Origin: Syntrophomonadaceae bacterium
GTDB taxonomy: Bacteria > Bacteroidota > Ignavibacteria > Ignavibacteriales > SURF-24
Direction: 5' to 3'
Length of the DNA: 64,000 nt
Assembly: GCA_050259615.1 (NCBI GenBank)
Contig: JBLNAZ010000020.1
Span: forward strand, 1,513 to 65,512
The notes below the pieces were generated by a model. It was not told the origin of the DNA, ran no database searches, and saw nothing but the letters and a program-made list of their open reading frames with translations. Position 1 is the stretch's first letter; each line of letters begins with the position of its first letter. Positions 7,928 to 46,844 of the stretch are shown here, one piece after another. Position numbers and translations under genes: made by a program.

Positions 7928-8610
7928 GAGTTTTAATTATTGGTTGCAATATATTACCTCACATCCGTTTTGTCAAGCTCATTTCTGAATATTTTGCATT
8001 AATGTTCACCTTTTTGTGTTTTTTATTCAATTTTAAGGAAAAAATTTCCCATTTTTCTAATTTTCTTCAGTTTGGGTCCCGGAAAAAGATGCGGGAGGAA
8101 GTGGTTTGATCAATAAATTAGTAATTTGGCGAAGGTTTTTCCCCGGGGCTTCTGCCTTTTTTGTTGCTGATATTTGTAAATCCCTGAAAATTCCGGAAAT
8201 AACACCTTAACTCCCATAAAGCCATACCGGACTAAAGTTTATCTTGTTTTCCACGATATTTTTCGGTATTCTTGTAAACGGTTTACTTTTCCGTTCTTAC
8301 TCAAAGAGTAATATGATTTTATTCCCCTTGTAACCAGGTTGTAATTTAATCCAGTCTTTATCTGTACAATTAGGTGTCGAGCCTATTGTATATATCACCT
8401 TGCGTAAAAACGGCTGCCGCCAGGCCAGTATGTCTTAAAAAGTAAGACTACTGTAATAGATTATAATTAGTTTTTCATTTCCCCTATTCTCTTAAAAGAA
8501 AAACCGGGCACCGGAATTCTTAATCCGGCGCTCACATTCTGATGAGGCGGGGATTGATGTGCTGAAAAGTAGCCGTCTATATATTATATTTCATAAAAAT
8601 TGGGATTTTA

Positions 8611-10392
8611 ATGAACAAAAGGTTTGAAGAACTTAACTTATCAAAAGAAATTCAAAAGGCAATTACTGATCTGGGATACGAAGAAGCTACACCTATTCAG
8701 TCTGAAGCTATACCAGTCCTGCTCGCCGGACACGACATTATTGGGCAGGCACAGACCGGAACAGGTAAAACCGCCGCATTCGGAATACCTGCCCTCGAAA
8801 TGCTCGATCCGCATAACAGAAATGTCCAGGCACTCATTCTCTGCCCTACAAGGGAACTGGCTTTACAGGTTTCTGAGGAAATAAGTAAAATAGCAAAATA
8901 TAAAAAAGGATTTTCTCTCCTCCCGGTCTACGGAGGACAATCCATTGAAAGACAGCTTAGCGTCCTTTCAAGAGGTGTGCAGATCGTAATCGGTACGCCA
9001 GGCAGAGTTATGGACCATATGGAACGCGGCTCCTTAAGACTGAATGATATAAAGATGGTTGTGCTTGACGAAGCAGATGAAATGCTGGATATGGGCTTCA
9101 GAGACGATATTGAAATGATATTAAAGCATACACCTGCCGAAAGACAGACGGTGCTGGTTTCAGCTACAATGCCAAAGCCTATTAAGGACCTGGCAAAAAG
9201 ATACCAGAAGGACCCGGTTAATATAAAGGTCGTCCATGAGGTGCTGACCGTGCCGAGCATTGAGCAGATTTACTTTGAAGTAAGGGAGAAAAATAAGCTT
9301 GAAGCTTTAACACGCGCAATTGACCTCTATAACATCAAACTTGGACTTGTATTCTGCAATACAAAAAGAGGCGTTGATGAGCTTACCGAACACCTTCAGG
9401 CACGCGGCTATGCTTCAGACGCCCTGCACGGGGATATGAAACAGGCAACACGTGAAAAAGTAATGGCCAAGTTCAGAAAAGGAATTATTGAAATTCTTAT
9501 TGCAACTGACGTTGCTGCACGCGGACTTGATGTTGAAAACGTGGAAGCCGTATTTAACTATGATATGCCCCAGGATGAAGAGTACTATGTTCACAGAATC
9601 GGCAGAACCGGACGCGCCGGAAAGTCGGGACGGGCATTTACCTTTGTAACAGGAAGAGACTTGTACCGCCTGAGGGATATACAGAAGTACACAAAGACAA
9701 AGATGAAGCTCATGGAAGTTCCTACTTTTGACGACGTAAGAGAAGTTAAAGCAGGCATCTTCCTGGATGAAATCAGAAAAGCTATTAAAGAAGGCGGTCT
9801 TAAAAAATACGTCCGCTTTGTTGAAACGCTTATTGATGAAGAAAACAGCTCACTCGACATCGCCGCTGCAATGATGAAGATGAACTTCCAGAAGGAAACG
9901 GCAACCCCGGATTTCGTGCCTGAAGTAAGAGAGTCTTTCTCCTGGGAATCAGCAGGCAGAGAAGGCAGACAAAGAGACGGACGCAGAAAAGAAGGCCGCA
10001 GAGAAGAGTCCGGCAGAAAAGATAGCCGCAGGGAAGATGGCCGCAGAGATGATAAACGCAGAAAAGATGACTTCAGAAAAGATGACTTCAGGGATGAAGG
10101 CGGCAGAAAAGACAGGTCCAAAAAGGGAAACCTGGATAAAAGCGACGGCGCAGTTGCACGACTCTTTCTTAACGTAGGGAAAAAGGACAAGGTTAAGCCG
10201 GGCGATATCGTGGGTGCAATTGCCGGGGAAACAGGACTTCCCGGAAAAATAATAGGCGAGATCAGTATGTTCGACAAATTTACTTTTGTTAACGTCCCTG
10301 AAAAATACGTCAGCGATATAGTGGAAGTAATGCAGGACAACCAGATCCGCGGCAAGAAAATAAATATAGAAGTTGCCAAGGACAGGATTTAA
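8611..10392 (+). CDS. deaD: DEAD-box ATP-dependent RNA helicase (DeaD/CsdA type, with C-terminal DbpA-like RNA-binding domain)
   Basis: 593 aa. Carries the Q motif, AQTGTGKT, DEAD, SAT and HRIGRTGRAG. An Arg/Asp/Lys-rich linker is followed by ARLFLNVGKKDKVKPGDIVGAIAGE (DbpA domain). Confidence 0.92.
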   Translation: MNKRFEELNLSKEIQKAITDLGYEEATPIQSEAIPVLLAGHDIIGQAQTGTGKTAAFGIPALEMLDPHNRNVQALILCPTRELALQVSEEISKIAKYKKGFSLLPVYGGQSIERQLSVLSRGVQIVIGTPGRVMDHMERGSLRLNDIKMVVLDEADEMLDMGFRDDIEMILKHTPAERQTVLVSATMPKPIKDLAKRYQKDPVNIKVVHEVLTVPSIEQIYFEVREKNKLEALTRAIDLYNIKLGLVFCNTKRGVDELTEHLQARGYASDALHGDMKQATREKVMAKFRKGIIEILIATDVAARGLDVENVEAVFNYDMPQDEEYYVHRIGRTGRAGKSGRAFTFVTGRDLYRLRDIQKYTKTKMKLMEVPTFDDVREVKAGIFLDEIRKAIKEGGLKKYVRFVETLIDEENSSLDIAAAMMKMNFQKETATPDFVPEVRESFSWESAGREGRQRDGRRKEGRREESGRKDSRREDGRRDDKRRKDDFRKDDFRDEGGRKDRSKKGNLDKSDGAVARLFLNVGKKDKVKPGDIVGAIAGETGLPGKIIGEISMFDKFTFVNVPEKYVSDIVEVMQDNQIRGKKINIEVAKDRI

Positions 10393-37783: not shown

Positions 37784-39877
37784 TCACTTTAGAAAAACAA
37801 GCTTCCGGGTTTCCGAATAGCTGCCCGACTTAAGATGGCAGAAATAAATTCCGCCCGGAAGATTCCCGGCATTAAAACGGATTTCGTGCTTTCCTGCCGA
37901 CATAATTGTGTCCACCAGGGTTTCCACTTCGCGCCCTAATGCATCAATTATCTGTATCTTTACCTCTCCCCTTTCAGGAATCTGATACGGAATCACAGTT
38001 GCCGGATTAAAGGGATTCGGGTAATTCTGAAAAAGCCCGTAACCGCTTAAAGGACTGTTAACAGGCACACTTGTAAGATTTATGTAACCGGGCTGTGCCA
38101 TTACACCACTTTCCTTGCTCAATATACTGTAAAGCACCGGATCAGTAAGAACTTTATCTGTCTTATAACTTACTCCGTCTATCGATATATCTGAATTAAG
38201 AAGACGGATGCCGTGGCTGTAGTCTACATATGTATCTATATGTATATTCGTTAAAGGCTGAATTGCTGATCCGTCCAGCTTATGCCAGCCATAAATGACT
38301 ACATGGCGGGGCCTTGCGGGATCGGTAATCTTATTGCTTACAACAACATCTTTTTTTGTCCCTCCGGTTAACTGCCCCAGACTTCCTCCTGCAGAAATCC
38401 TTTCAGATTCAATTGCCTGGCTGTGCTCAATAAATTTTGCCACCATTTCATTTGCATTTCCTACGGGAGTGTATGTAACAGGAGCAAGCTTTATTTCCGA
38501 GTGGGTGTAAATATCATCAACCAGTTTGCTTGTAGGCATCGTGGTACCCGAAAGATTGGCCAGCTTCTGTGCCGTTATGGGTCCCATCGGTATACGGCAG
38601 AAGTCCGAATTGGAGCCTATTGCAAGGTAATCGGGTGTAACATCGTAACTTACAGAGTGGCTTATTCCAGAAGCATCTTTTAAGGTGGTCCTTATGGTAA
38701 CCATATTTCTTAAAAAGTCGGGCACGTTGCCTCTTGAAATTTCATTGTATATTTCAGTTTCTCTCTGCTCAAATGTCATAAACTGCACTTTCTGCATAAA
38801 AGCTGAACCCGTAAGGGCGTTTGCCGGGCGCTGCGGCAGATTGAGCATTTTAGGAACGTACACTTCTGGCTGAACCAAATCCGTATATGACCTCTGGCCA
38901 AAATACTTATAGCCCTGCTCTTCGTAAGGTGTACCTGAAGCTATTGCCTGTATGAATCCGTTCAGTTCAACCTGCACGGTGTGTAAAATCTGCCTTAGGG
39001 GATTTTCCTTCAGTATTATTTTAATTCTTCCGTTAAGGGCCGTATATTTTATGAATGATGAATCTGCCGCAGACGTAAAGCTGAAAAACTGCGAAAGGTA
39101 TTTTTTCATCATTTTCGTTCTGTACCACGTGCCTCCTGTGGGGCTTACAACAGGCTGGCCATTATAAAGAGCTATGCTGTCGTTATAGGCTATAACGCTT
39201 AAGAAGTGCTTATCCGAGGATTTAAGCCAGTCTGCAAGCTTTTTGCCATAAGTGTCGTCGTAATTATAATCGCTGTCCAGAAAAGAAATCCTCTCAACCC
39301 GGTCCGGAATTGAATCCATGGCATTCATAAAGCTGAAAGTAAAGCCCCCGCCGCCGCTGTGGCCCGAAAGGATAACAAAAGGATTTGTATTTTTAAAAAT
39401 ACTTAGCACCGAATCGGCTATATTTTTTACCAGAAGCGCATTATCCGGGTGTTTGCTTCTCCATGAAGGCCAGCTTTTCTGGTCGGTCTGAAGATATATA
39501 GTTACAATATTATAATCTTTCATCTGCCTGCGCAGGAATCTAGTCTGCGCGCCTATATGCTGTATGTCAAAGTGCCAGTCGTCCCCTGTTTTTAACGTTT
39601 TACCTATTGTCTGCTCAATTGTGTTGCCGTTAGGAAGCGCAAAGAAAACAAGCCCCGTGGGTTTAGTTAAGTCGAAGGAACTGTCATCAGGAGCATTTAT
39701 CTGGATCCTGACCTCGGGACTGAAAGTAAAGTTTAGGATCTGCTCGTTAAAAAAAGGGCTTTTTATAAATCCCTTCAGCCTTCCCGTACCTGTCTGGGCG
39801 TTTAATGCTGAAGAGACAGGGCAGAAAACCTGAGAAAAAAGGGTGAATAAAACATAGAGGAAATTTTTCGCAGTCAT
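37784..39877 (-). CDS. secreted protein with hydrolase-like GHSGGG motif and T9SS C-terminal sorting domain
   Basis: 697 aa. Signal peptide, ILSGHSGGGGFTF (nucleophile-elbow-like), and C-terminus NYPNPFNPATVIPYQIP...IIDALGREV...GGIYFCHLKSG. Confidence 0.75.
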   Translation of the reverse strand: MTAKNFLYVLFTLFSQVFCPVSSALNAQTGTGRLKGFIKSPFFNEQILNFTFSPEVRIQINAPDDSSFDLTKPTGLVFFALPNGNTIEQTIGKTLKTGDDWHFDIQHIGAQTRFLRRQMKDYNIVTIYLQTDQKSWPSWRSKHPDNALLVKNIADSVLSIFKNTNPFVILSGHSGGGGFTFSFMNAMDSIPDRVERISFLDSDYNYDDTYGKKLADWLKSSDKHFLSVIAYNDSIALYNGQPVVSPTGGTWYRTKMMKKYLSQFFSFTSAADSSFIKYTALNGRIKIILKENPLRQILHTVQVELNGFIQAIASGTPYEEQGYKYFGQRSYTDLVQPEVYVPKMLNLPQRPANALTGSAFMQKVQFMTFEQRETEIYNEISRGNVPDFLRNMVTIRTTLKDASGISHSVSYDVTPDYLAIGSNSDFCRIPMGPITAQKLANLSGTTMPTSKLVDDIYTHSEIKLAPVTYTPVGNANEMVAKFIEHSQAIESERISAGGSLGQLTGGTKKDVVVSNKITDPARPRHVVIYGWHKLDGSAIQPLTNIHIDTYVDYSHGIRLLNSDISIDGVSYKTDKVLTDPVLYSILSKESGVMAQPGYINLTSVPVNSPLSGYGLFQNYPNPFNPATVIPYQIPERGEVKIQIIDALGREVETLVDTIMSAGKHEIRFNAGNLPGGIYFCHLKSGSYSETRKLVFLK

Positions 39878-40038
39878 TTTTTACTTTTGTCCTTAAAATA
39901 CAGTTGCAATATTTTTCAGGTAAAACTAAGATTTTTCCTCCCAAATATGAATAGAATTAAATTTTATTTTCAGGCACTTGAATTTTTAACTTACTAATAT
40001 TATGTTACCAGTTAAAATAATTGCTAGTGACAACTATT

Positions 40039-40446
40039 ATGACTAAAGTTATAGATCTGATTTTTGAGATCAAGAACAAGTGCATCTTAAATGAAGAAGA
40101 AATTATGGGAGCCTATAGGCTTTCCCCCGCTGAATACAGGGGCCTTTTGGCTATAAGTCAGGGGGAAACGGTTACATGCAGGGAGCTTTCGGAAAAGATG
40201 GGACTTTCACCTTCCAGGGGAAGCAGAGTAATTTTCAAGCTCATAAAAAACGGTTATATTAAACAATGGGCCTCTGCTGAAGACAGAAGGTGCCTCTTTG
40301 TAAGCCTGGATGAAAAAGGAATCGGCGTACGCCATAGGATCGAACAGGCCAGATTGGAGTGCGAGGCTCAGATTAAAAGCCGCCTTTCAGCCGAGGAAAT
40401 GGAATTTGTAGTTAACAGCCTTAATAAATTAATAATGGTATTATAA
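40039..40446 (+). CDS. MarR-family transcriptional regulator
   Basis: 135 aa from the ATG at 40039; the track start at 40021 is a TTG. Winged-helix pattern LSPAEYRGLLAI...TCRELSEKMGLSPSRGSRVIFKLIKNGYI...EDRRCLFVSL. Confidence 0.75.
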   Translation: MTKVIDLIFEIKNKCILNEEEIMGAYRLSPAEYRGLLAISQGETVTCRELSEKMGLSPSRGSRVIFKLIKNGYIKQWASAEDRRCLFVSLDEKGIGVRHRIEQARLECEAQIKSRLSAEEMEFVVNSLNKLIMVL

Positions 40447-40449
40447 CAA

Positions 40450-41097
40450 ATGGATACAATTGAGATAAATAAACGCTACAGCCAACTGGCTGAAGAGTCA
40501 TGCTGCCTTTCGTGCGGAGGCGCTCTCGACTTAAGTCAGCCTAAGGAAGGTGAAGTATGCGTGGATCTGGGCTGCGGCCGCGGAACTGATGTGCTCCGCC
40601 TGGCTCAGACGGTGGGTGAAAAAGGATTTGCATACGGAATCGATATTTCAGACGGAATGCTCGAAAAAGCCGCAAAAAACGCGGAGAAGCTGGGAATTAT
40701 GAATGCCCGGTTTATTAAGTCGGAGCTTGAAAAACTGGACCTCGAGAGCAATATAGGGGACCTGGTAATTTCCAACTGCACAATTAACCATGCACATGAT
40801 AAAAGCGCCGTATGGAACGAAATTTACAGGGTTCTTAAAAAGGGTGGAAGATTTGTTATAAGTGATATATATTCAATTGAGGCGGTTCCTGAAGAGTACA
40901 GAACCGATCCGGCAGCCGTTGCGGAATGCTGGGCAGGAGCTGTCCCGAAGGAAGAGTACCTCGCAGTTGTAACTCAGGCAGGATTTACCGGGGTAGAGAT
41001 ACTGGAAGAAAGCAGGCCTTACGAAAAAGGTAAGATTCAGGTTGTCAGTTTCACATTAGCCGGCAAAAAGCCTTCCTGCTGCTGCAGTTGTTCATAA
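40450..41097 (+). CDS. class I SAM-dependent methyltransferase, arsenite methyltransferase (ArsM)-like, with Cys-rich C-terminal tail
   Basis: 215 aa. N-terminal ESCCLSCGG, SAM motif I VDLGCGRGTDV, ISNCTINHA, VLKKGGRFVISD and AECWAGAV. This is the ArsM-type layout with Cys at the three positions I recall as catalytic. Tail is KKPSCCCSCS. The start lies 3 nt after the MarR stop. Confidence 0.6.
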   Translation: MDTIEINKRYSQLAEESCCLSCGGALDLSQPKEGEVCVDLGCGRGTDVLRLAQTVGEKGFAYGIDISDGMLEKAAKNAEKLGIMNARFIKSELEKLDLESNIGDLVISNCTINHAHDKSAVWNEIYRVLKKGGRFVISDIYSIEAVPEEYRTDPAAVAECWAGAVPKEEYLAVVTQAGFTGVEILEESRPYEKGKIQVVSFTLAGKKPSCCCSCS

Positions 41098-41115
41098 CTA
41101 AAAGAAGGAGAAAAA

Positions 41116-41211
41116 GTGAAGTCGTTAGTAAATAATGTTAAGAAATCCGATAAGAAAGTGGCCCAGTGCTGCGCAAAAGTAAGTAAGACCGTTGCAGGCT
41201 GCCACGATTAA
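41116..41211 (+). CDS. unlisted 31-aa Cys-containing peptide ORF (candidate RiPP precursor or thiol-rich ligand peptide)
   Basis: GTG at 41116 lies 5 nt after GAAGGAG (41104-41110). Translation is (M)KSLVNNVKKSDKKVAQCCAKVSKTVAGCHD*. It is followed 40 nt later by a strong terminator and lies immediately upstream of a radical SAM/SPASM gene. Confidence 0.55.
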   Translation: MKSLVNNVKKSDKKVAQCCAKVSKTVAGCHD

Positions 41212-41250
41212 ACTTCTGTTAAAGCTTACCGGAAAATGAAAATTATTTAA

Positions 41251-41284
41251 CTGCAGGGGACATTTCCTCTGCAGTTTTATTTTA
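41251..41284 (+). terminator. rho-independent terminator/attenuator directly after the small peptide ORF
   Basis: CTGCAGGGGA-CATT-TCCTCTGCAG (10 bp, one G-U), followed by TTTTATTTTA. Confidence 0.8.
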
Positions 41285-41313
41285 TTCTGATTACAAAATT
41301 AACTCTTCCGCCG

Positions 41314-41367
41314 GCAGGGATTTTTCCTTAAGCAGGAATTTTTCTGAATCCCGGAAAGGAATCCTGC
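41314..41367 (+). promoter_or_regulatory. three copies of a GCAGGrATTyyTTCC-like motif (two direct, one inverted) upstream of the radical SAM gene
   Basis: Copies are GCAGGGATTTTTCC (41314-41327), GCAGGAATTTTTC (41332-41344) and the inverted GGAAAGGAATCCTGC (41353-41367). This could be an operator or a 5'-leader stem. Confidence 0.35.
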
Positions 41368-41399
41368 ATCAAACCCTTATAAATTAATTGGTCTGTCAA

Positions 41400-42698
41400 A
41401 TGCACTTTTCAAAGTATAATATTTTCTCCAGGATAAGAAACTCGGATAATTACTATCTGGTAAATATCCTCACGGGCAGTGCCGACATTCTCACAAAAGA
41501 AAAAGCTTCCGAGATTAAAAGCGGCAATTACACAGATATTGAGGAGTATATAGAAAAAGGCTACCTCATTGATGAAGTAAAGGAAAAACAGCTTTATAAC
41601 TCAAAGTATCTGGACTTTATAGACGAAAGAGAAAAAGATGAAGTCCAGATCTTCTTTGTGCCCTGGTACGCCTGTAATTTCAGCTGCTCATACTGCTATC
41701 AGTCGGGATATGAAAATAACCCCGGTAAACTCACCAAAGATGTAATAGACGCTTTTTTCGGATACATAAGCAGGGAATTTGCCGAAAGAAGAAAGTATAT
41801 CACGGTTTTCGGCGGTGAGCCTTTATTACCGGGTAAAGCTGCCATGGAAACGGTGGAATATTTTCTGGATAAAGCATCCCAAATGAACCTCGAAACCGCT
41901 TTTGTTACCAACGGCTACACGCTTTCAGAGTATGCGGGTATACTCCGCGGCAGGAAGATCCGTGAAATACAGGTAACACTGGACGGGACTTCTGAAGCGC
42001 ACGATAAAAGGCGTCCTCTTAAAACGGGAGAACCTACTTTTAACAGGATCGTTCAGGGAATAGACAGCGCTCTTAAAGAAAACATAACCGTAAACCTTCG
42101 CATGGTGCTCGACCAGGAAAACATGGAGGCGCTTCCTTTTCTTGCAGCCTTTGCAGTTGAAAAAGGATGGACTAAAAGCCCTCTTTTCAAGACTCAGCTC
42201 GGGCGCAACTATGAACTGCACTACTGCCAGACGGGACAAAGCAAGCTTCTTAGCCGTATAGAATTTTACGAATCAATATATAACATCATATTAAAACATC
42301 CGGAAATTATGGAATTCCACAAACCGGCTTTCTCCATATCCGGATTTTTATTTAAAAACGGCGAGCTCCCCTCGCCTCTTTTTGACGCGTGCACCGGATG
42401 CAAAACCGAATGGGCCTTTGACTATACGGGCAACATATATTCCTGCACAGCTACAGTCGGAAAACCCGGCGAGTCGCTGGGTACATTCTACCCTGAAGTA
42501 ACACGCAAGAGCAAGGTTATAGAGCACTGGGAGGAAAGAGACGTAACTGTTATACCGGAGTGCAGGGACTGCAGTCTGCAGCTTGCATGCGGAGGCGGAT
42601 GTGCAGCAGTGGCTTTTAACCGTACTGGAGAATTGCATTCACCGGACTGCAGACCGGTTAAGGAATTAATTGAAATGGGATTATCATTATATTTTTAA
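41400..42698 (+). CDS. radical SAM enzyme with C-terminal SPASM domain and roughly 80-aa N-terminal extension
   Basis: 432 aa from the ATG at 41400; the track start at 41388 is a TTG. CNFSCSYC (CX3CX2C) begins at residue 92. CKTEWAFDYTGNIYSC (CX9GX4C) and CRDCSLQLACGGGC (CX2CX5CX3C) form a full SPASM motif for auxiliary Fe-S clusters. Confidence 0.85.
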   Translation: MHFSKYNIFSRIRNSDNYYLVNILTGSADILTKEKASEIKSGNYTDIEEYIEKGYLIDEVKEKQLYNSKYLDFIDEREKDEVQIFFVPWYACNFSCSYCYQSGYENNPGKLTKDVIDAFFGYISREFAERRKYITVFGGEPLLPGKAAMETVEYFLDKASQMNLETAFVTNGYTLSEYAGILRGRKIREIQVTLDGTSEAHDKRRPLKTGEPTFNRIVQGIDSALKENITVNLRMVLDQENMEALPFLAAFAVEKGWTKSPLFKTQLGRNYELHYCQTGQSKLLSRIEFYESIYNIILKHPEIMEFHKPAFSISGFLFKNGELPSPLFDACTGCKTEWAFDYTGNIYSCTATVGKPGESLGTFYPEVTRKSKVIEHWEERDVTVIPECRDCSLQLACGGGCAAVAFNRTGELHSPDCRPVKELIEMGLSLYF

Positions 42699-42714
42699 CG
42701 GGAGACAACCTGAC

Positions 42715-44001
42715 ATGCATGAAAATATTAAATACATCAGGCAGGAAGAATTTGAAAATGAAGTATTAAATGCGGGCAAAGTGGCAGTGGATTTTTATTC
42801 AACCGAATGCCCTCCCTGCGAAGCTCTGGCAAGCAAATATGAAACACTAAGCAGCATTTATGGCGATGACATAAAATTCATTAAAATTTTCAGGCAGGAA
42901 AGCCGCGAGCTTGCACTTTCACTTGGCGTTACATCCTCGCCCACAGTTCTGTTCTATGACCATGGAAAACTTACAGGCGAGAGGCTTTCAGGAGGAATAA
43001 AAAGAGCCGACCTGGTTAAAAACCTCGACGCACTTTTACCCATGGAAAGAGTGGGAGAGCTTAAGAAGAAAATTAAACCTGTTGAAACCGAATGCGACGT
43101 TCTTATTATTGGAGCAGGCCCGGCAGGACTTACTTCGGCAATATATACAGCGCAGGCAAAACTTAAAACAATTGTAGTGGATAAAGAGCTCCCTGGCGGA
43201 CAGGTGAAAGTTACTCATCAGGTAAGCAATTATCCGGGCTTTACAGAACCTGTTTCAGGCTATATGCTTATGCATTATATGGCTGAACAGGCAAAGTCGG
43301 CCGGGGTTGACTTCAGAGCTGCAGTTGACGTGACTGAAATTAATCTACAGGATAAATATATTGTAATTGACGGTTTTGAGAAAATATCGGCTGAAAAGAT
43401 AGTGCTTGCCACCGGAAGTTCACCACGGTCCCTAAACGTAAAGGGTGAGAAGGAGTATAAAGGCCAGGGAATATCCTACTGCGCCACATGCGACGCCAAA
43501 TTTTTTGAAGGCAGGCATGCAGTTGTAATAGGCGGGGGAAATTCGGCAATTGAAGAGGCCCTTTTCATTACCAAATTCGCCTCGAAGGTTACGGTTATAC
43601 ACCAGTTCGACAAGCTGCAGGCAAATAAACTGGCGCAGGAAAAGGCTTTTGCAAACCGGAAAATTGAATTCATTTTCGAGCATGAGCCGAGGGAATTTGT
43701 GAAGAACGGACAAAGTGTAAATGAGGTTGTAATGGAAGACCTCAGGACACATGAATTAAAACGCCTTAAGTGCGACGGAGTGTTCATTTTTGCCGGCATG
43801 AAACCTAATATCTCTGAATTCTGCGATAACTTTGAGCTGGATAACTGGGGATATGTAAAAGTGGACAGCGGAATGCATACAAACCTGAAAGATGTTTTTG
43901 CAGTGGGAGACGTTGCAAGCAAACCTTACAGGCAGATAACAACAGCCGTTTCAGACGGGACTGTTGCTGCTATTACAATCTCAAAAGAATTCGAAGGCTA
44001 A
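42715..44001 (+). CDS. fusion protein: N-terminal thioredoxin domain (CPPC) + thioredoxin-disulfide reductase (CATC)
   Basis: 428 aa from the ATG at 42715; the track's TTG start at 42670 overlaps the rSAM gene. Trx fold VAVDFYSTECPPCEAL...SPTVLFY. TrxR part VLIIGAGPAGLTSAIY, ISYCATCDAKFF, VVIGGGNSAIEEA and FAVGDV. Confidence 0.85.
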   Translation: MHENIKYIRQEEFENEVLNAGKVAVDFYSTECPPCEALASKYETLSSIYGDDIKFIKIFRQESRELALSLGVTSSPTVLFYDHGKLTGERLSGGIKRADLVKNLDALLPMERVGELKKKIKPVETECDVLIIGAGPAGLTSAIYTAQAKLKTIVVDKELPGGQVKVTHQVSNYPGFTEPVSGYMLMHYMAEQAKSAGVDFRAAVDVTEINLQDKYIVIDGFEKISAEKIVLATGSSPRSLNVKGEKEYKGQGISYCATCDAKFFEGRHAVVIGGGNSAIEEALFITKFASKVTVIHQFDKLQANKLAQEKAFANRKIEFIFEHEPREFVKNGQSVNEVVMEDLRTHELKRLKCDGVFIFAGMKPNISEFCDNFELDNWGYVKVDSGMHTNLKDVFAVGDVASKPYRQITTAVSDGTVAAITISKEFEG

Positions 44002-44027
44002 GTTCAAGGTTCAAAGTTCAAGGTATA

Positions 44028-44056
44028 AAAAGGTCAGGAATTTATCTGGCCTTTTT
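44028..44056. terminator. hairpin between convergent trx-trxR fusion and histidine kinase genes
   Basis: AAAAGGTCAG-8 nt-CTGGCCTTTT (10 bp, one G-U; AT-rich ends). Overlaps the kinase stop codon. Confidence 0.5.
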
Positions 44057-46844
44057 ATACCGGTATAGTAAAATAGAATGTTGTGCCTTTACCCTCTTCA
44101 GATTCCACCCAGATATTTCCGCCATGATGCTCAACAATTCTCTTGCAGATGGCAAGACCGATTCCGGTTCCCGGATAAGACTCCCTGTCGTGCAGTCTCT
44201 GGAATATTACAAATATTCTTTCTTTGAACTGCGGATCAATGCCAATTCCATTGTCCTTGACGGAAAAAAGCCACAGCTTGTCCTTCTTTTCCGCGCTGAT
44301 ACCGATTTCAGGATCATTCTGACCCCTGAATTTTATGGCATTTGAAATCAGATTCTGAAATACCTGGCGGATCTGTGTTGTATCTGCATAAATTACAGGG
44401 AGTTTTCCATATTTAATTTTGGCGCTGTTTTCTTCAATAGTCACCTTAAGATCGGTAATAACATTATGCATAACCGCGTTTAAGTCAGTATTCACAAAGT
44501 TTTCGCCCTTTACTGTTATTCGGGAGAATGAGAGCAGGTCCTGTATAAGTGACTGCATTCTTCTGGAGCCTTCAATTATAAATTCAAGCAGCTGATCAGC
44601 CCTTTCGTCGAGCTTATTCCGGTATCCTCTTGAAAGCATCTGAGTATAATTGGCAATTACTCTGAGAGGCTCCTGCAGATCGTGCGAAGCCACATAGGCA
44701 AACTGCTCAAGTTCCTCGTTTGAACGCTCGAGGTTTCTGAGTGTCTCCTCAAGCTGCAGCATCATCTTTTCCCTCTCAGTTATATCAAGCACCAGCGAGA
44801 GCACCGAAATGAGCTCCCCGTTTGAATCCACAAGAGCCGAGTTATACCACTCGCATGTAATAACAGAGCCGTCTTTACGGTAATTGCGGTTCGTATGCAG
44901 ATTGCTGGTTTTCTTTGAGGCGAACATTGCAGCACTGAGTTCTGAAACTCTCTGTGCGTCATCCTCATGAACCCATCTGAAATCACCGATGTTTTTGCCG
45001 ATAACTTCATCAGCCTTCCAGCCGAAGATCTCCTCGGCTTTGCCCGACCAGCTTTTTATCTGGTATCCATTATTGAACTCAACTACAGCCAGCGGGGAAT
45101 TCTCGACGTGAAACTTCAGGTGCTGAAGTGCAACCTGAAGCGATTTTTCGGCCTGTTTTTGCTCTGTAACATCCAGAATAACAAAAATAATAAGTACAAT
45201 CTCCCCCTGAGTGTTGCGCACAGGCTCTACAAAATAGGAAAGAGTTCTTTCCCTGCCTGTATTTTTATTGCGCAGGCACAGCTCATAATTCTTTACAAAT
45301 TCACCTTTAACTGCTCTTGAGATGGGCCATTCTTCCAGGGGCATAACTTTCCCGTCGGGATAGAAAAGGCCGAACCTTTCATTATACTCATTGAGGTTTG
45401 ATGGCAAGCTTTCACCCTGTAAACCGAGCATGGCAATACCTGCCTTGTTAAATGAATTTATTTTGCCATAGGGATCGCTTACGCCAACTCCGGCGGGCAG
45501 GTTCTCAATTATAGCAGCCAGTTTACCGCGTTCAATTTCAAGTGCTTCGGAAAGTTCCTTGTAACGCCTTTCACTCTCGCGCAGCCGCTCTTCGTCATTT
45601 TTGCGTTCAGTAATATCCCTCCATGCAACAATTCCGCCCGTAATTTCCCCCTGCCTGGATCTTATCGGGGCAGCATTGCACAATAAATGGAGCGACTCGC
45701 CTTTGGAATTAATCTGAATTACTTCGGCGTTAATTACCTCCTCACCCTTTTCAATTGCACGCACAAGAGGCAGGTTCTCCGTTTTCATTTCAGTTATGCC
45801 ATCCGGGTAATAAACGTTCCACTTTTCAGCAACCGCATCAGCCGACATCCCCCGGTGAGCTCCGCCGAGTTTTTCTTCTCCGTAGCGGCTGACCATACGA
45901 ATGTTTATATCCTTTGCATCTGCAATCGTAATTCCTTCAGGCACAAATTCCATCAGTGCATCAAGTATGAGCTTGCTTTCTTCTATTTCAGCTTCTGCCC
46001 GTCTTTTATCGCTTATGTCATAAAATGTACTTACTGCAGCAATGATATCGCCATCGGCATTCTTAACAGGAGCTGCATTAACTGAAAGATATGTAAAGAT
46101 CCCGTCGCCTCTTTTATACAGCATCTCCTCACCCAGAACCACCTCTCCTTTTACTGCTCTTACAATCGGGTATTCTTCCGGAGCGTAAGGGATTTTATAG
46201 TCGTGCATTGCGCCGTATTTTGAATAACCTGTTAAGCCATCTACCTGGATCAATGGATGACCCAGCAGTCTGGATGCTTGTTCATTATGGTATAGCAGCT
46301 TCCCCGACGGAGCTTCAGCAATTGATACCCCGGAGGGCATCTGAGCCATTATGGAATTAAACCATGCACGTTCAAGCTCAAGTGTCTGCAGAAGCTCTTT
46401 ATTCTTTTCAGGCTTTGGACTGCTTTCTTTCCAGCTCAGTGCAATACTTTTCTCTAATGACGAAATATTGACGTCAATTATGCCTTTTTCACGTCTGTTT
46501 TTAATTTTATATGAAAGCGATGTAATATTAACAGGAAGGTGGTTTTTCAAAACCTTACGAATTGCGTTATACAGTTTTACGTTCTGCTTTTCGGGAAAGA
46601 GATCTGATAAACCTGTGCCTGCTGCTGCTTCCCTGTCAAGCCTCAGATGTCTTGCAGCGGCTTCATTGATAAATGCAACTGTAAAGCCTTCTGTAGTTTT
46701 CCCCTTTGCGCGTTCCGGTAAATCTCCTGCGGGTAGGATTACTGCAAAAGGCTCAATAAGATTTTCAAATACAGAAAACAGCTCACCGTTTCCGCCTGGC
46801 AGCGTGCTGTTCCGGGCAGATGCATCAGTATGATTTCTTTCCAT
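44055..46844 (-). CDS. cytoplasmic multi-PAS sensor histidine kinase (HisKA + HATPase_c)
   Basis: H-box FAYVASHDLQEPLRVI. N/G boxes NLISNAIKF, DNGIGI and GTGIGLAICKRIVEHHGG. Four PAC-end junctions (DISDKRR, DITERKN, DVTEQKQ, DITEREK). The start at 46844 (MERNHTD...) is preferred over the track start at 47030, but this is uncertain. Confidence 0.85.
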   Translation of the reverse strand: MERNHTDASARNSTLPGGNGELFSVFENLIEPFAVILPAGDLPERAKGKTTEGFTVAFINEAAARHLRLDREAAAGTGLSDLFPEKQNVKLYNAIRKVLKNHLPVNITSLSYKIKNRREKGIIDVNISSLEKSIALSWKESSPKPEKNKELLQTLELERAWFNSIMAQMPSGVSIAEAPSGKLLYHNEQASRLLGHPLIQVDGLTGYSKYGAMHDYKIPYAPEEYPIVRAVKGEVVLGEEMLYKRGDGIFTYLSVNAAPVKNADGDIIAAVSTFYDISDKRRAEAEIEESKLILDALMEFVPEGITIADAKDINIRMVSRYGEEKLGGAHRGMSADAVAEKWNVYYPDGITEMKTENLPLVRAIEKGEEVINAEVIQINSKGESLHLLCNAAPIRSRQGEITGGIVAWRDITERKNDEERLRESERRYKELSEALEIERGKLAAIIENLPAGVGVSDPYGKINSFNKAGIAMLGLQGESLPSNLNEYNERFGLFYPDGKVMPLEEWPISRAVKGEFVKNYELCLRNKNTGRERTLSYFVEPVRNTQGEIVLIIFVILDVTEQKQAEKSLQVALQHLKFHVENSPLAVVEFNNGYQIKSWSGKAEEIFGWKADEVIGKNIGDFRWVHEDDAQRVSELSAAMFASKKTSNLHTNRNYRKDGSVITCEWYNSALVDSNGELISVLSLVLDITEREKMMLQLEETLRNLERSNEELEQFAYVASHDLQEPLRVIANYTQMLSRGYRNKLDERADQLLEFIIEGSRRMQSLIQDLLSFSRITVKGENFVNTDLNAVMHNVITDLKVTIEENSAKIKYGKLPVIYADTTQIRQVFQNLISNAIKFRGQNDPEIGISAEKKDKLWLFSVKDNGIGIDPQFKERIFVIFQRLHDRESYPGTGIGLAICKRIVEHHGGNIWVESEEGKGTTFYFTIPV

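Follow-up and report, generated by a model that had tools for sequence, protein, structure and literature searches.

Within a 64,000-nucleotide (nt) stretch of contig JBLNAZ010000020.1 from a Syntrophomonadaceae bacterium (hereafter, the window), five same-strand genes form a unit with opposite-strand genes on both sides: a MarR-family regulator, a short ArsM-like S-adenosylmethionine (SAM) methyltransferase, a Cys-rich peptide, a radical SAM/SPASM enzyme (hereafter, rSAM), and a thioredoxin-thioredoxin reductase fusion (Trx-TrxR; Table 1). The subject of this report is the peptide gene, an open reading frame (ORF) of 31 codons whose translation, MKSLVNNVKKSDKKVAQCCAKVSKTVAGCHD, consists of an N-terminus resembling MKSL(I/V)KK, a variable Lys-rich linker, and the core AQCCAKxSxxxxGCHD, directly followed by the stop codon. 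The rSAM gene begins 188 nt 3' of it. In the four public assemblies that we read, all with an identical rSAM protein, gene callers reported MarR, methyltransferase, rSAM, and TrxR and put nothing in the 302-nt gap between methyltransferase and rSAM, so that the peptide is uncalled in the source organism. An initial annotation, made from the letters of the window, had pointed to this unannotated ORF of 31 amino acids (aa) with its GTG start, to a Shine-Dalgarno (SD) sequence (GAAGGAG) 5 nt before it, and to a methyltransferase upstream in the same reading frame (TAA at 41095-41097, then 18 nt, or six codons, to the GTG), all of which lie where it had placed them.

Eighteen rSAM homologues were aligned and the alignment was used to fetch related loci, one genome per species. 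At least 591 loci matched it, and 80 of them, from Ignavibacteriota, Spirochaetota, Bacteroidota, and Latescibacterota, were retained for analysis; the search used the rSAM protein alone, and the peptide played no part in it. One carrier that can be cultured is Spirochaeta isovalerica, which encodes the rSAM (P0082). Based on tblastn with the 31-aa query, each of the 78 loci with DNA 5' of rSAM has a co-oriented peptide ORF just upstream of this gene, with frame, length class, three Cys residues, and stop position kept throughout. The core A-Q-C-C-A-K-x-S-x4-G-C-H-D-stop was found in 78/78 loci, preceded by the N-terminus M-K-S-L-(I/V)-K-K, which is also conserved, and by a variable, Lys-rich middle part (linker length from about 5 to 30 residues across loci). 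Among 75 distinct sequences of the last 18 codons, there is no variation at A, C, C, A, K, G, C, and H, and one change each at Q, S, and D. Synonymous codons are all used at the conserved positions (2-4 each; four Ala, four Gly, and both Cys codons), with pN = 0.005 at the 11 conserved codons and saturated synonymous sites. Nucleotide identity is 0.70 in the core, compared to 0.26 (chance level) in the 51 nt past the stop. An SD-like motif precedes the peptide start in 19/19 Ignavibacteria loci and in 21/23 loci of Spirochaetota or other lineages (40/42 outside Bacteroidota); its complete absence from Bacteroidota (0/36) is expected because this phylum uses SD sequences little. The peptide gene starts with ATG in 77/78 loci, which makes the GTG in the window an exception, and the peptide gene is single-copy in 199/199 loci.

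Because the residues are invariant, synonymous change is free, and stop and SD are conserved, the 31-codon ORF is a real protein-coding gene, nearly unchanged across several bacterial phyla. The initial annotation had read it as a real small gene and had proposed this very tblastn comparison with the DNA upstream of homologous rSAM genes, naming missing conservation of frame and Cys positions as the outcome that would speak against it. We found synonymous bias and conserved Cys spacing; across four phyla, neither the frame nor the CC-x9-C spacing nor the C-terminal GCHD varies, while synonymous change is free. The notion of an accidental reading frame, lying in a spacer that is not translated and in which the downstream hairpin alone is functional, can draw on the short length of the ORF, its GTG start, and its being uncalled by gene finders in the source organism, but this notion is already refuted by the comparative data and has practically no probability left: in the 75 distinct sequences, which come from several phyla, the amino acids are invariant while synonymous change is saturated, the stop keeps its position, the SD is conserved where a lineage uses one, and orthologues have been called in NCBI and JGI records. 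An exact look-up showed that these orthologues carry only the name 'hypothetical protein', and no Pfam or NCBIfam model matches the peptide even at E up to 1.

Table 1 Features of the five-gene unit and its flanks, with positions counted from the first letter of the window.
Feature	Position	Strand	Details
Secreted protein	37784-39877	-	Por/T9SS C-terminal sorting domain
MarR-family regulator, 135 aa, first gene	40039-40446	+	ATG 40039; mechanical ORF from TTG 40021; Pfam MarR E 4e-9
ArsM-like SAM methyltransferase, short, 215 aa	40450-41097	+	C-terminal Cys-rich tail SCCCSCS at 41065-41097
Shine-Dalgarno sequence GAAGGAG	41104-41110	+	5 nt 5' of GTG start
Cys-rich peptide gene, 31 aa	41116-41211	+	GTG start; TAA stop 41209-41211
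Intrinsic-terminator-like hairpin and T-tract	41249-41288	+	Between peptide and rSAM genes; stem and loop 41249-41276, T-tract 41277-41288
Imperfect inverted repeat GCAGGAATTTTTCTGAATCCCGGAAAGGAATCCTGC	41332-41367	+	Between terminator and rSAM start; no Rfam match
Radical SAM/SPASM peptide maturase, 432 aa	41400-42698	+	ATG 41400; mechanical ORF from TTG 41388; Pfam Radical_SAM
Thioredoxin (CPPC)-thioredoxin reductase (CATC) fusion, 428 aa	42715-44001	+	Start follows gene callers, mechanical ORF begins TTG 42670; motifs read from translation; NCBIfam TRX_reduct E 3e-98; Pfam Thioredoxin E 1.5e-17
Multi-PAS sensor histidine kinase-like ORF (by eye), 991 aa	44055-47030	-	

To describe the gene neighborhood, all ORFs of the 80 genome loci were clustered, with the window region included. 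Three protein partners are constant, i.e., rSAM (80 loci), the methyltransferase (79), and Trx-TrxR (79), and the methyltransferase adjoins the peptide in 77/78 genome loci. Accessory genes comprise DUF1847 (22 loci), MarR (20, window region included), and a small DUF6132 membrane protein (14); in the 19 related loci with MarR, mostly Spirochaetota, it lies upstream of the methyltransferase. No protease, transporter, or immunity gene is conserved among the clustered ORFs, and the peptide has no GG-type cleavage motif. Since the flanking genes are unrelated and differ between loci, the cassette behaves as a self-contained module.

An independent scan of metagenome contigs, which used a degenerate DNA pattern of the core motif alone, returned 120 contigs. 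Where there was enough flanking sequence, the peptide is directly followed by rSAM in 83/104 contigs and preceded by the methyltransferase in 79/88. Most of the exceptions belong to a high-GC lineage (65-71% GC; peptides MKLLTKxKKACCAPEKAAQCCAKASRLVSGCHD), in which the order is methyltransferase, peptide, and TrxR, and an orthologous rSAM (~38% identity, same motifs) is convergent on the opposite strand, so that all four genes are retained despite the rearranged order. This high-GC variant also has a conserved ORF of ~60 aa with the pattern C-x3-C ... C-x2-C (e.g., MKVELSDKELSLLLQSLSHCLATCKHKGKAEPCEDCEAATALKNKL) between methyltransferase and peptide (L155 ~1300-1463, L176 ~8550-8735), and its peptide contains a second CC (ACCAPEK-AAQCCAK). 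Taken together, the two data sets directly support a peptide gene that is real, under purifying selection, and tightly linked to three enzymes. From this basis we infer its level of translation, its relation to the enzyme as a substrate, the chemistry involved, and its physiological role.

The rSAM protein has the features of a peptide maturase. Among the 18 homologues, the invariant Cys residues are those of the CxxxCxxC motif (C92, C96, C99) and of the SPASM domain (C331, C349, C388, C391, C397, C401, C417). In an AlphaFold2 model (mean predicted confidence, pLDDT, 79.5), residues 7-79 form three strands and three helices in the layout of a RiPP recognition element (RRE; local pLDDT 84-94). 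Pfam PqqD/RRE gave no match to rSAM, so the assignment of this N-terminal domain, which we describe as RRE-like, rests on the predicted fold. A Foldseek search with the model ranked CteB first over the full length (E 6e-15), followed by anSME, SuiB, ChlB, and TigE, all of which are SPASM enzymes that modify peptides or proteins; CteB is also the best solved structure for rSAM by phmmer against the PDB (E 6e-12). Among NCBIfam models, the best match was CefB (E 1e-48, 165.9 bits, cut-off 600), and further matches were TIGR04463 (E 1.5e-38, 133 bits, cut-off 525), PapB (positions 12-330 of 330, E 4e-33, 115 bits, cut-off 340), the SCIFF-maturase model (84.8 bits, cut-off 425), and MftC (66.9, cut-off 265), with Clo7bot maturases also among the best named relatives below their cut-off.

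Based on these relationships, the peptide is likely to be the dedicated substrate (precursor) of the adjoining radical SAM/SPASM enzyme, as the initial annotation had suggested in reading it as the precursor of a peptide that is made by the ribosome and modified after translation (RiPP), and the RRE-like domain, the SPASM domain, the closeness to CteB, and the matches to maturases of Cys-rich peptides all fit. The conserved N-terminal MKSL(I/V)KK would be the handle for the RRE-like domain, the variable Lys-rich stretch would serve as a linker, and the invariant 16-residue C-terminal core AQCCAK-x-S-x4-GCHD would be the part that is modified. Because rSAM is homologous to CteB, PapB, and other maturases of Cys-rich peptides, the likeliest chemistry would be the radical formation of at least one thioether crosslink from Cys sulfur to carbon, with the invariant C-terminal Asp as a candidate acceptor, along with Ser, Lys, Gln, and His; by analogy with these enzymes, the peptide is probably thioether-crosslinked. 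Peptide and rSAM would act with the methyltransferase and Trx-TrxR as one cassette, and the product would work inside the cell as a thiol/thioether redox or metalloid-handling factor, more like a cofactor or SCIFF than a secreted antibiotic. An intracellular role is likely because the core is invariant across phyla, the gene is single-copy, and the conserved neighbours include no protease, exporter, or immunity gene.

The closest parallels come from systems with short, conserved precursors. CteA (SCIFF) and CteB constitute a ranthipeptide system that forms a thioether from Cys sulfur to the gamma carbon of Thr; SCIFF peptides are ~45 aa long, contain six Cys, and occur in Clostridia. The cassette shares with this system a short Cys-rich peptide beside an enzyme that combines RRE, radical SAM, and SPASM domains, a peptide sequence that is highly conserved instead of hypervariable, and the lack of a conserved protease or exporter, whereas its peptide differs in having three Cys and a C-terminal GCHD. 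We know of no SCIFF locus that carries an ArsM-like methyltransferase or a Trx-TrxR fusion. A Cys with an invariant Asp as candidate acceptor recalls PapA/PapB (freyrasin, Cys-to-Asp beta-thioethers) and QhpC/QhpD (Cys-to-Asp/Glu); PapA has six repeated C-x3-D motifs, whereas the cassette peptide has one C-H-D, at its very C-terminus. The two best-scoring named families, CefB (Cys-every-fifth) and TIGR04463, are by name maturases of short Cys-rich peptides, but the Cys pattern differs from that of the cassette peptide. Mycofactocin (MftA/MftC) and PQQ (PqqA/PqqE) likewise have a single-copy precursor whose invariant C-terminal core ends at the stop, together with a conserved set of tailoring and redox enzymes and no export genes; their chemistries use Tyr/Val or Glu/Tyr and not Cys, and the cassette, unlike them, has no conserved peptidase gene. 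With its invariant core, single copy, and lack of export genes, the cassette therefore resembles SCIFF, mycofactocin, or PQQ more than antibiotic RiPPs. It would work like a ranthipeptide/SCIFF-type system and is a member of no named family, since the scores fall far short of every curated model and no model matches the peptide.

Several observations weigh against the peptide as a dedicated rSAM substrate. The enzyme reaches the curated NCBIfam cut-off of no named maturase family (SCIFF, CefA/B, PapA/B, TIGR04463, Clo7bot, and others), and because its scores lie far below every one of these thresholds, the chemistry of a named family could not be transferred to it with confidence. Only three Cys are present in the peptide, which shows no CX3D or SCIFF-like pattern. 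Three loci (L102, L151, and L184) have methyltransferase and peptide with no rSAM nearby, and in L102 neither rSAM nor TrxR was found within 13 kb; the peptide may thus be tied as closely to the methyltransferase as to rSAM, or more so. In Bacteroidales, a lipoprotein thioredoxin in the cassette hints at an extracytoplasmic step that an intracellular model does not explain.

The methyltransferase is the source of the main competing explanation. It matches the NCBIfam arsenite methyltransferase PRK11873 with E 1e-54 and 185.7 bits, below the cut-off of 263, and its best PDB matches are the ArsM structures 5EVJ and 4FR0. Its segments lsCGG, visnC, and eCwaGA align with ygCGs, visnC, and eClgGA of ArsM (phmmer, 4KW7/4FR0), whose cysteines are the As(III)-binding Cys72, Cys174, and Cys224 of CmArsM. 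By this alignment, the As(III)-binding cysteines of ArsM are retained in the protein, which is predicted to adopt the class I fold of SAM methyltransferases, and the As(III)-binding alternative raised in the initial annotation gains some weight from this retention. About two-thirds of the methyltransferase orthologues end in a Cys-rich tail, such as that in the window (Table 1) or CCCC, CGCKG, and CNCS elsewhere. Extra Cys (CC or CxC) in the peptide linker occur in 5/23 loci with a tail-less methyltransferase, compared to 1/52 with a tailed one (Fisher p 0.009). We also considered whether the peptide might be the N-terminal CC motif of ArsM, split off from the enzyme, and rejected this origin, because SCC and CGG motifs are still present in the short methyltransferase itself.

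Accordingly, the peptide could mainly be a partner of the methyltransferase: its CC and C thiolates, with His and Asp, would carry As(III) or another soft metalloid to the enzyme, in a role like that of glutathione conjugates for ArsM, Trx-TrxR would re-reduce enzyme or peptide, and rSAM would be secondary (pre-organising the peptide) or unrelated. The retained Cys triad, the ArsM structures as top PDB matches, the position of the methyltransferase as the most constant neighbour in the motif-only scan, the loci that have no rSAM nearby, and the association of tail loss with extra peptide Cys all speak for it. So does established knowledge of ArsM, which uses Trx/TrxR and prefers As(GS)3 as donor, and of ArsD and ArsR, which use CC/C triads. 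The constant Trx-TrxR fusion fits with this role of thioredoxin and its reductase in sustaining ArsM turnover. We nonetheless hold this explanation to be unlikely, because in 78/78 genome loci the peptide adjoins an rSAM that is a peptide maturase by type and has an RRE-like domain, which would be difficult to account for if the peptide were not the substrate of this enzyme, the methyltransferase stays below the ArsM family cut-off, and no arsR, arsC, acr3, or arsB gene is among the conserved neighbours of the 80 loci. An ars-operon context was rejected on the last of these grounds.

Known arsenic systems show partial similarity, and the radical SAM enzymes of two of them, ArsS and ArsL, act in SAM-derived small-molecule chemistry and not on peptides. 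ArsS pairs with ArsM in arsenosugar synthesis, a system that is not known to have a precursor peptide. In arsinothricin synthesis (ArsL/ArsM), a radical SAM enzyme is likewise coupled genetically to a methyltransferase of the ArsM type, and no precursor peptide has been described (PMC8552651). Unlike ArsL/ArsM and ArsS/ArsM, the cassette is not embedded in an ars operon. The vicinal Cys pair and third Cys of the peptide recall the As(III) tri-thiolate sites of ArsD and ArsR, which are built from the same elements; these are, however, folded proteins of ~120 aa without sequence similarity to the cassette peptide. A scheme that would combine all the enzymes is peptide-templated metalloid chemistry, in which the three thiolates hold As(III) or another soft metalloid such as Sb, Se, or Te, the SPASM enzyme forms a bond by radical chemistry on this complex or on the peptide, the ArsM-type enzyme methylates, and Trx-TrxR recycles the thiols. 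The outcome would be either an organometalloid-bearing ribosomal peptide or a dedicated peptide cofactor with which bacteria, perhaps ones that have no glutathione, would methylate metalloids anaerobically. We consider this scheme quite unlikely.

Returning to the peptide as a precursor, the expression signals around its gene are consistent with a substrate that is made in excess of its enzyme. The hairpin downstream of the peptide gene, with stem AACTGCAGGGGA-CATT-TCCTCTGCAGTT, comprises 12 pairs (6 G-C, one G.U) and a 4-nt loop, with the T-tract TTTTATTTTATT directly 3' of it, in agreement with the initial annotation, which had noted a 10-bp GC-rich hairpin with a T-tract, starting 40 nt after the stop; the GC-rich core of the stem does begin at this distance. 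When the 91-nt stretch 41205-41295 was folded, the centroid was this stem alone (-18.8 kcal/mol, z -4.6), and 0/200 shuffles folded as stably. Among the related loci, a hairpin with T-tract follows the peptide gene in ~13/19 Ignavibacteria, ~5/23 Spirochaetota or other, and ~7/36 Bacteroidota loci; these counts are approximate, as a strict perfect-stem scan and an RNAfold window scan disagree (L006, L011, and L028 were found only by the former). The stems in Ignavibacteria are unrelated in sequence, so it is the structure that is kept and not the sequence. In several Bacteroidales loci, only 5-8 nt separate the peptide stop from the rSAM start, which makes a terminator impossible there. The putative terminator that the initial annotation had placed between the precursor gene and its maturase thus recurs in most Ignavibacteria loci but only in a minority of those in Spirochaetota and Bacteroidota, so that the absence of the hairpin from orthologous loci, which the annotation had named as speaking against its reading, applies in part; a terminator universal to the cassette was rejected in favor of a lineage-specific distribution. 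An attenuator role is plausible for the Ignavibacteria lineage and is not a defining feature of the cassette.

The rSAM start in the window has no obvious SD, and in Ignavibacteria an SD precedes 5/19 rSAM genes compared to 19/19 peptide genes. Because rSAM genes mostly have no SD and peptide genes do, an excess of peptide over enzyme is favored; in the source organism, the strong peptide SD, the downstream terminator, and the lack of an obvious SD on the rSAM gene would together yield far more peptide than enzyme. The shared frame of methyltransferase and peptide, over which the initial annotation had been cautious, is a coincidence: the offset from methyltransferase stop to peptide start (modulo 3) is 0, 1, and 2 in 28, 20, and 30 loci, respectively. 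Read-through or a fusion of peptide and methyltransferase was rejected given this spread and gaps that range from 0 to ~600 nt.

A small ORF followed by a terminator upstream of structural genes also invites a regulatory explanation, in which the ORF is a cis-acting leader or arrest peptide: the terminator, and with it the expression of rSAM and TrxR, would depend on how a ribosome behaves on the Cys codons or at GCHD-stop, and the peptide itself would be functionless. The conserved block lies at a fixed distance from the stop, and the whole 31-aa chain would fit into the ribosomal exit tunnel, as is generally known for peptides of the TnaC/SecM type. This explanation is nevertheless very improbable, since most loci of Spirochaetota and Bacteroidota have no terminator, the next gene can follow after 5-8 nt, the downstream gene varies by lineage (rSAM, TrxR, or others), and the N-terminus is conserved as well, with a linker of variable length. 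Folding of 41095-41405 revealed no obvious antiterminator alternative (z -1.5), and an Rfam scan of 39800-44200 found only a sub-threshold match of a miRNA model, on the hairpin. Separately, the imperfect inverted repeat downstream of the terminator (Table 1) could be an operator or an RNA structure.

A full-text literature search, which included a paper on Bacteroidales RiPPs, found no description of the peptide or the cassette, and none that joins the three enzymes, i.e., a radical SAM maturase of Cys-rich peptides, an ArsM-type methyltransferase, and a thioredoxin system. Small genes under annotation cut-offs are routinely lost, and here the uncalled peptide is among the most conserved features of its locus. 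Anaerobic Ignavibacteriota, Bacteroidota, Spirochaetota, and other bacteria carry the cassette in at least 591 genomes at the species level. If the peptide is indeed a crosslinked redox or metalloid factor, it would represent a new conserved RiPP-like family with a physiological and not an antibiotic role, which could bear on the methylation of arsenic (and related elements) by anaerobes in sediments and paddy soils. Testing the family is straightforward, since the sequences already give the candidate substrate, the enzyme, and both of the partners.

Some cassettes contain additional genes. A fifth member that is often present, usually between rSAM and TrxR, is the Cys-rich DUF1847 protein (Pfam E 5e-40; e.g., L058:2185-2772, L036:7308-7877, L054:7305-7865, L040:6324-6875, and 18 further loci); a full-text literature search for DUF1847 by name found no paper. 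In L102 (8501-10079 and downstream), methyltransferase and peptide are followed by a 164-aa ORF that is TsaA/YaeB-like by eye; after it come an ORF resembling DUF1847, another methyltransferase, which is class I-like, and a protein rich in CxxCH (multihaem-like). The thioredoxin of Bacteroidales and related Bacteroidota mentioned above is lipoprotein-like (WCPPC or WCAPC motif; signal peptide and lipobox by eye) and is inserted between methyltransferase and peptide (L043:5354-5812, L052:5350-5814, L032:4227-4688, L056:5405-5884, L062:5377-5856). Upstream of the methyltransferase and on the opposite strand, Bacteroidales loci (L032, L043, L046, L052, L056, L057, L064, L068, L079, and L080) encode a divergently transcribed zinc-ribbon protein of ~150 aa (CxxC...CxxC, resembling a transposase N-terminus by eye). 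Its gene occupies the position that MarR has in Spirochaetota and in the window, and the protein may be an alternative regulator.

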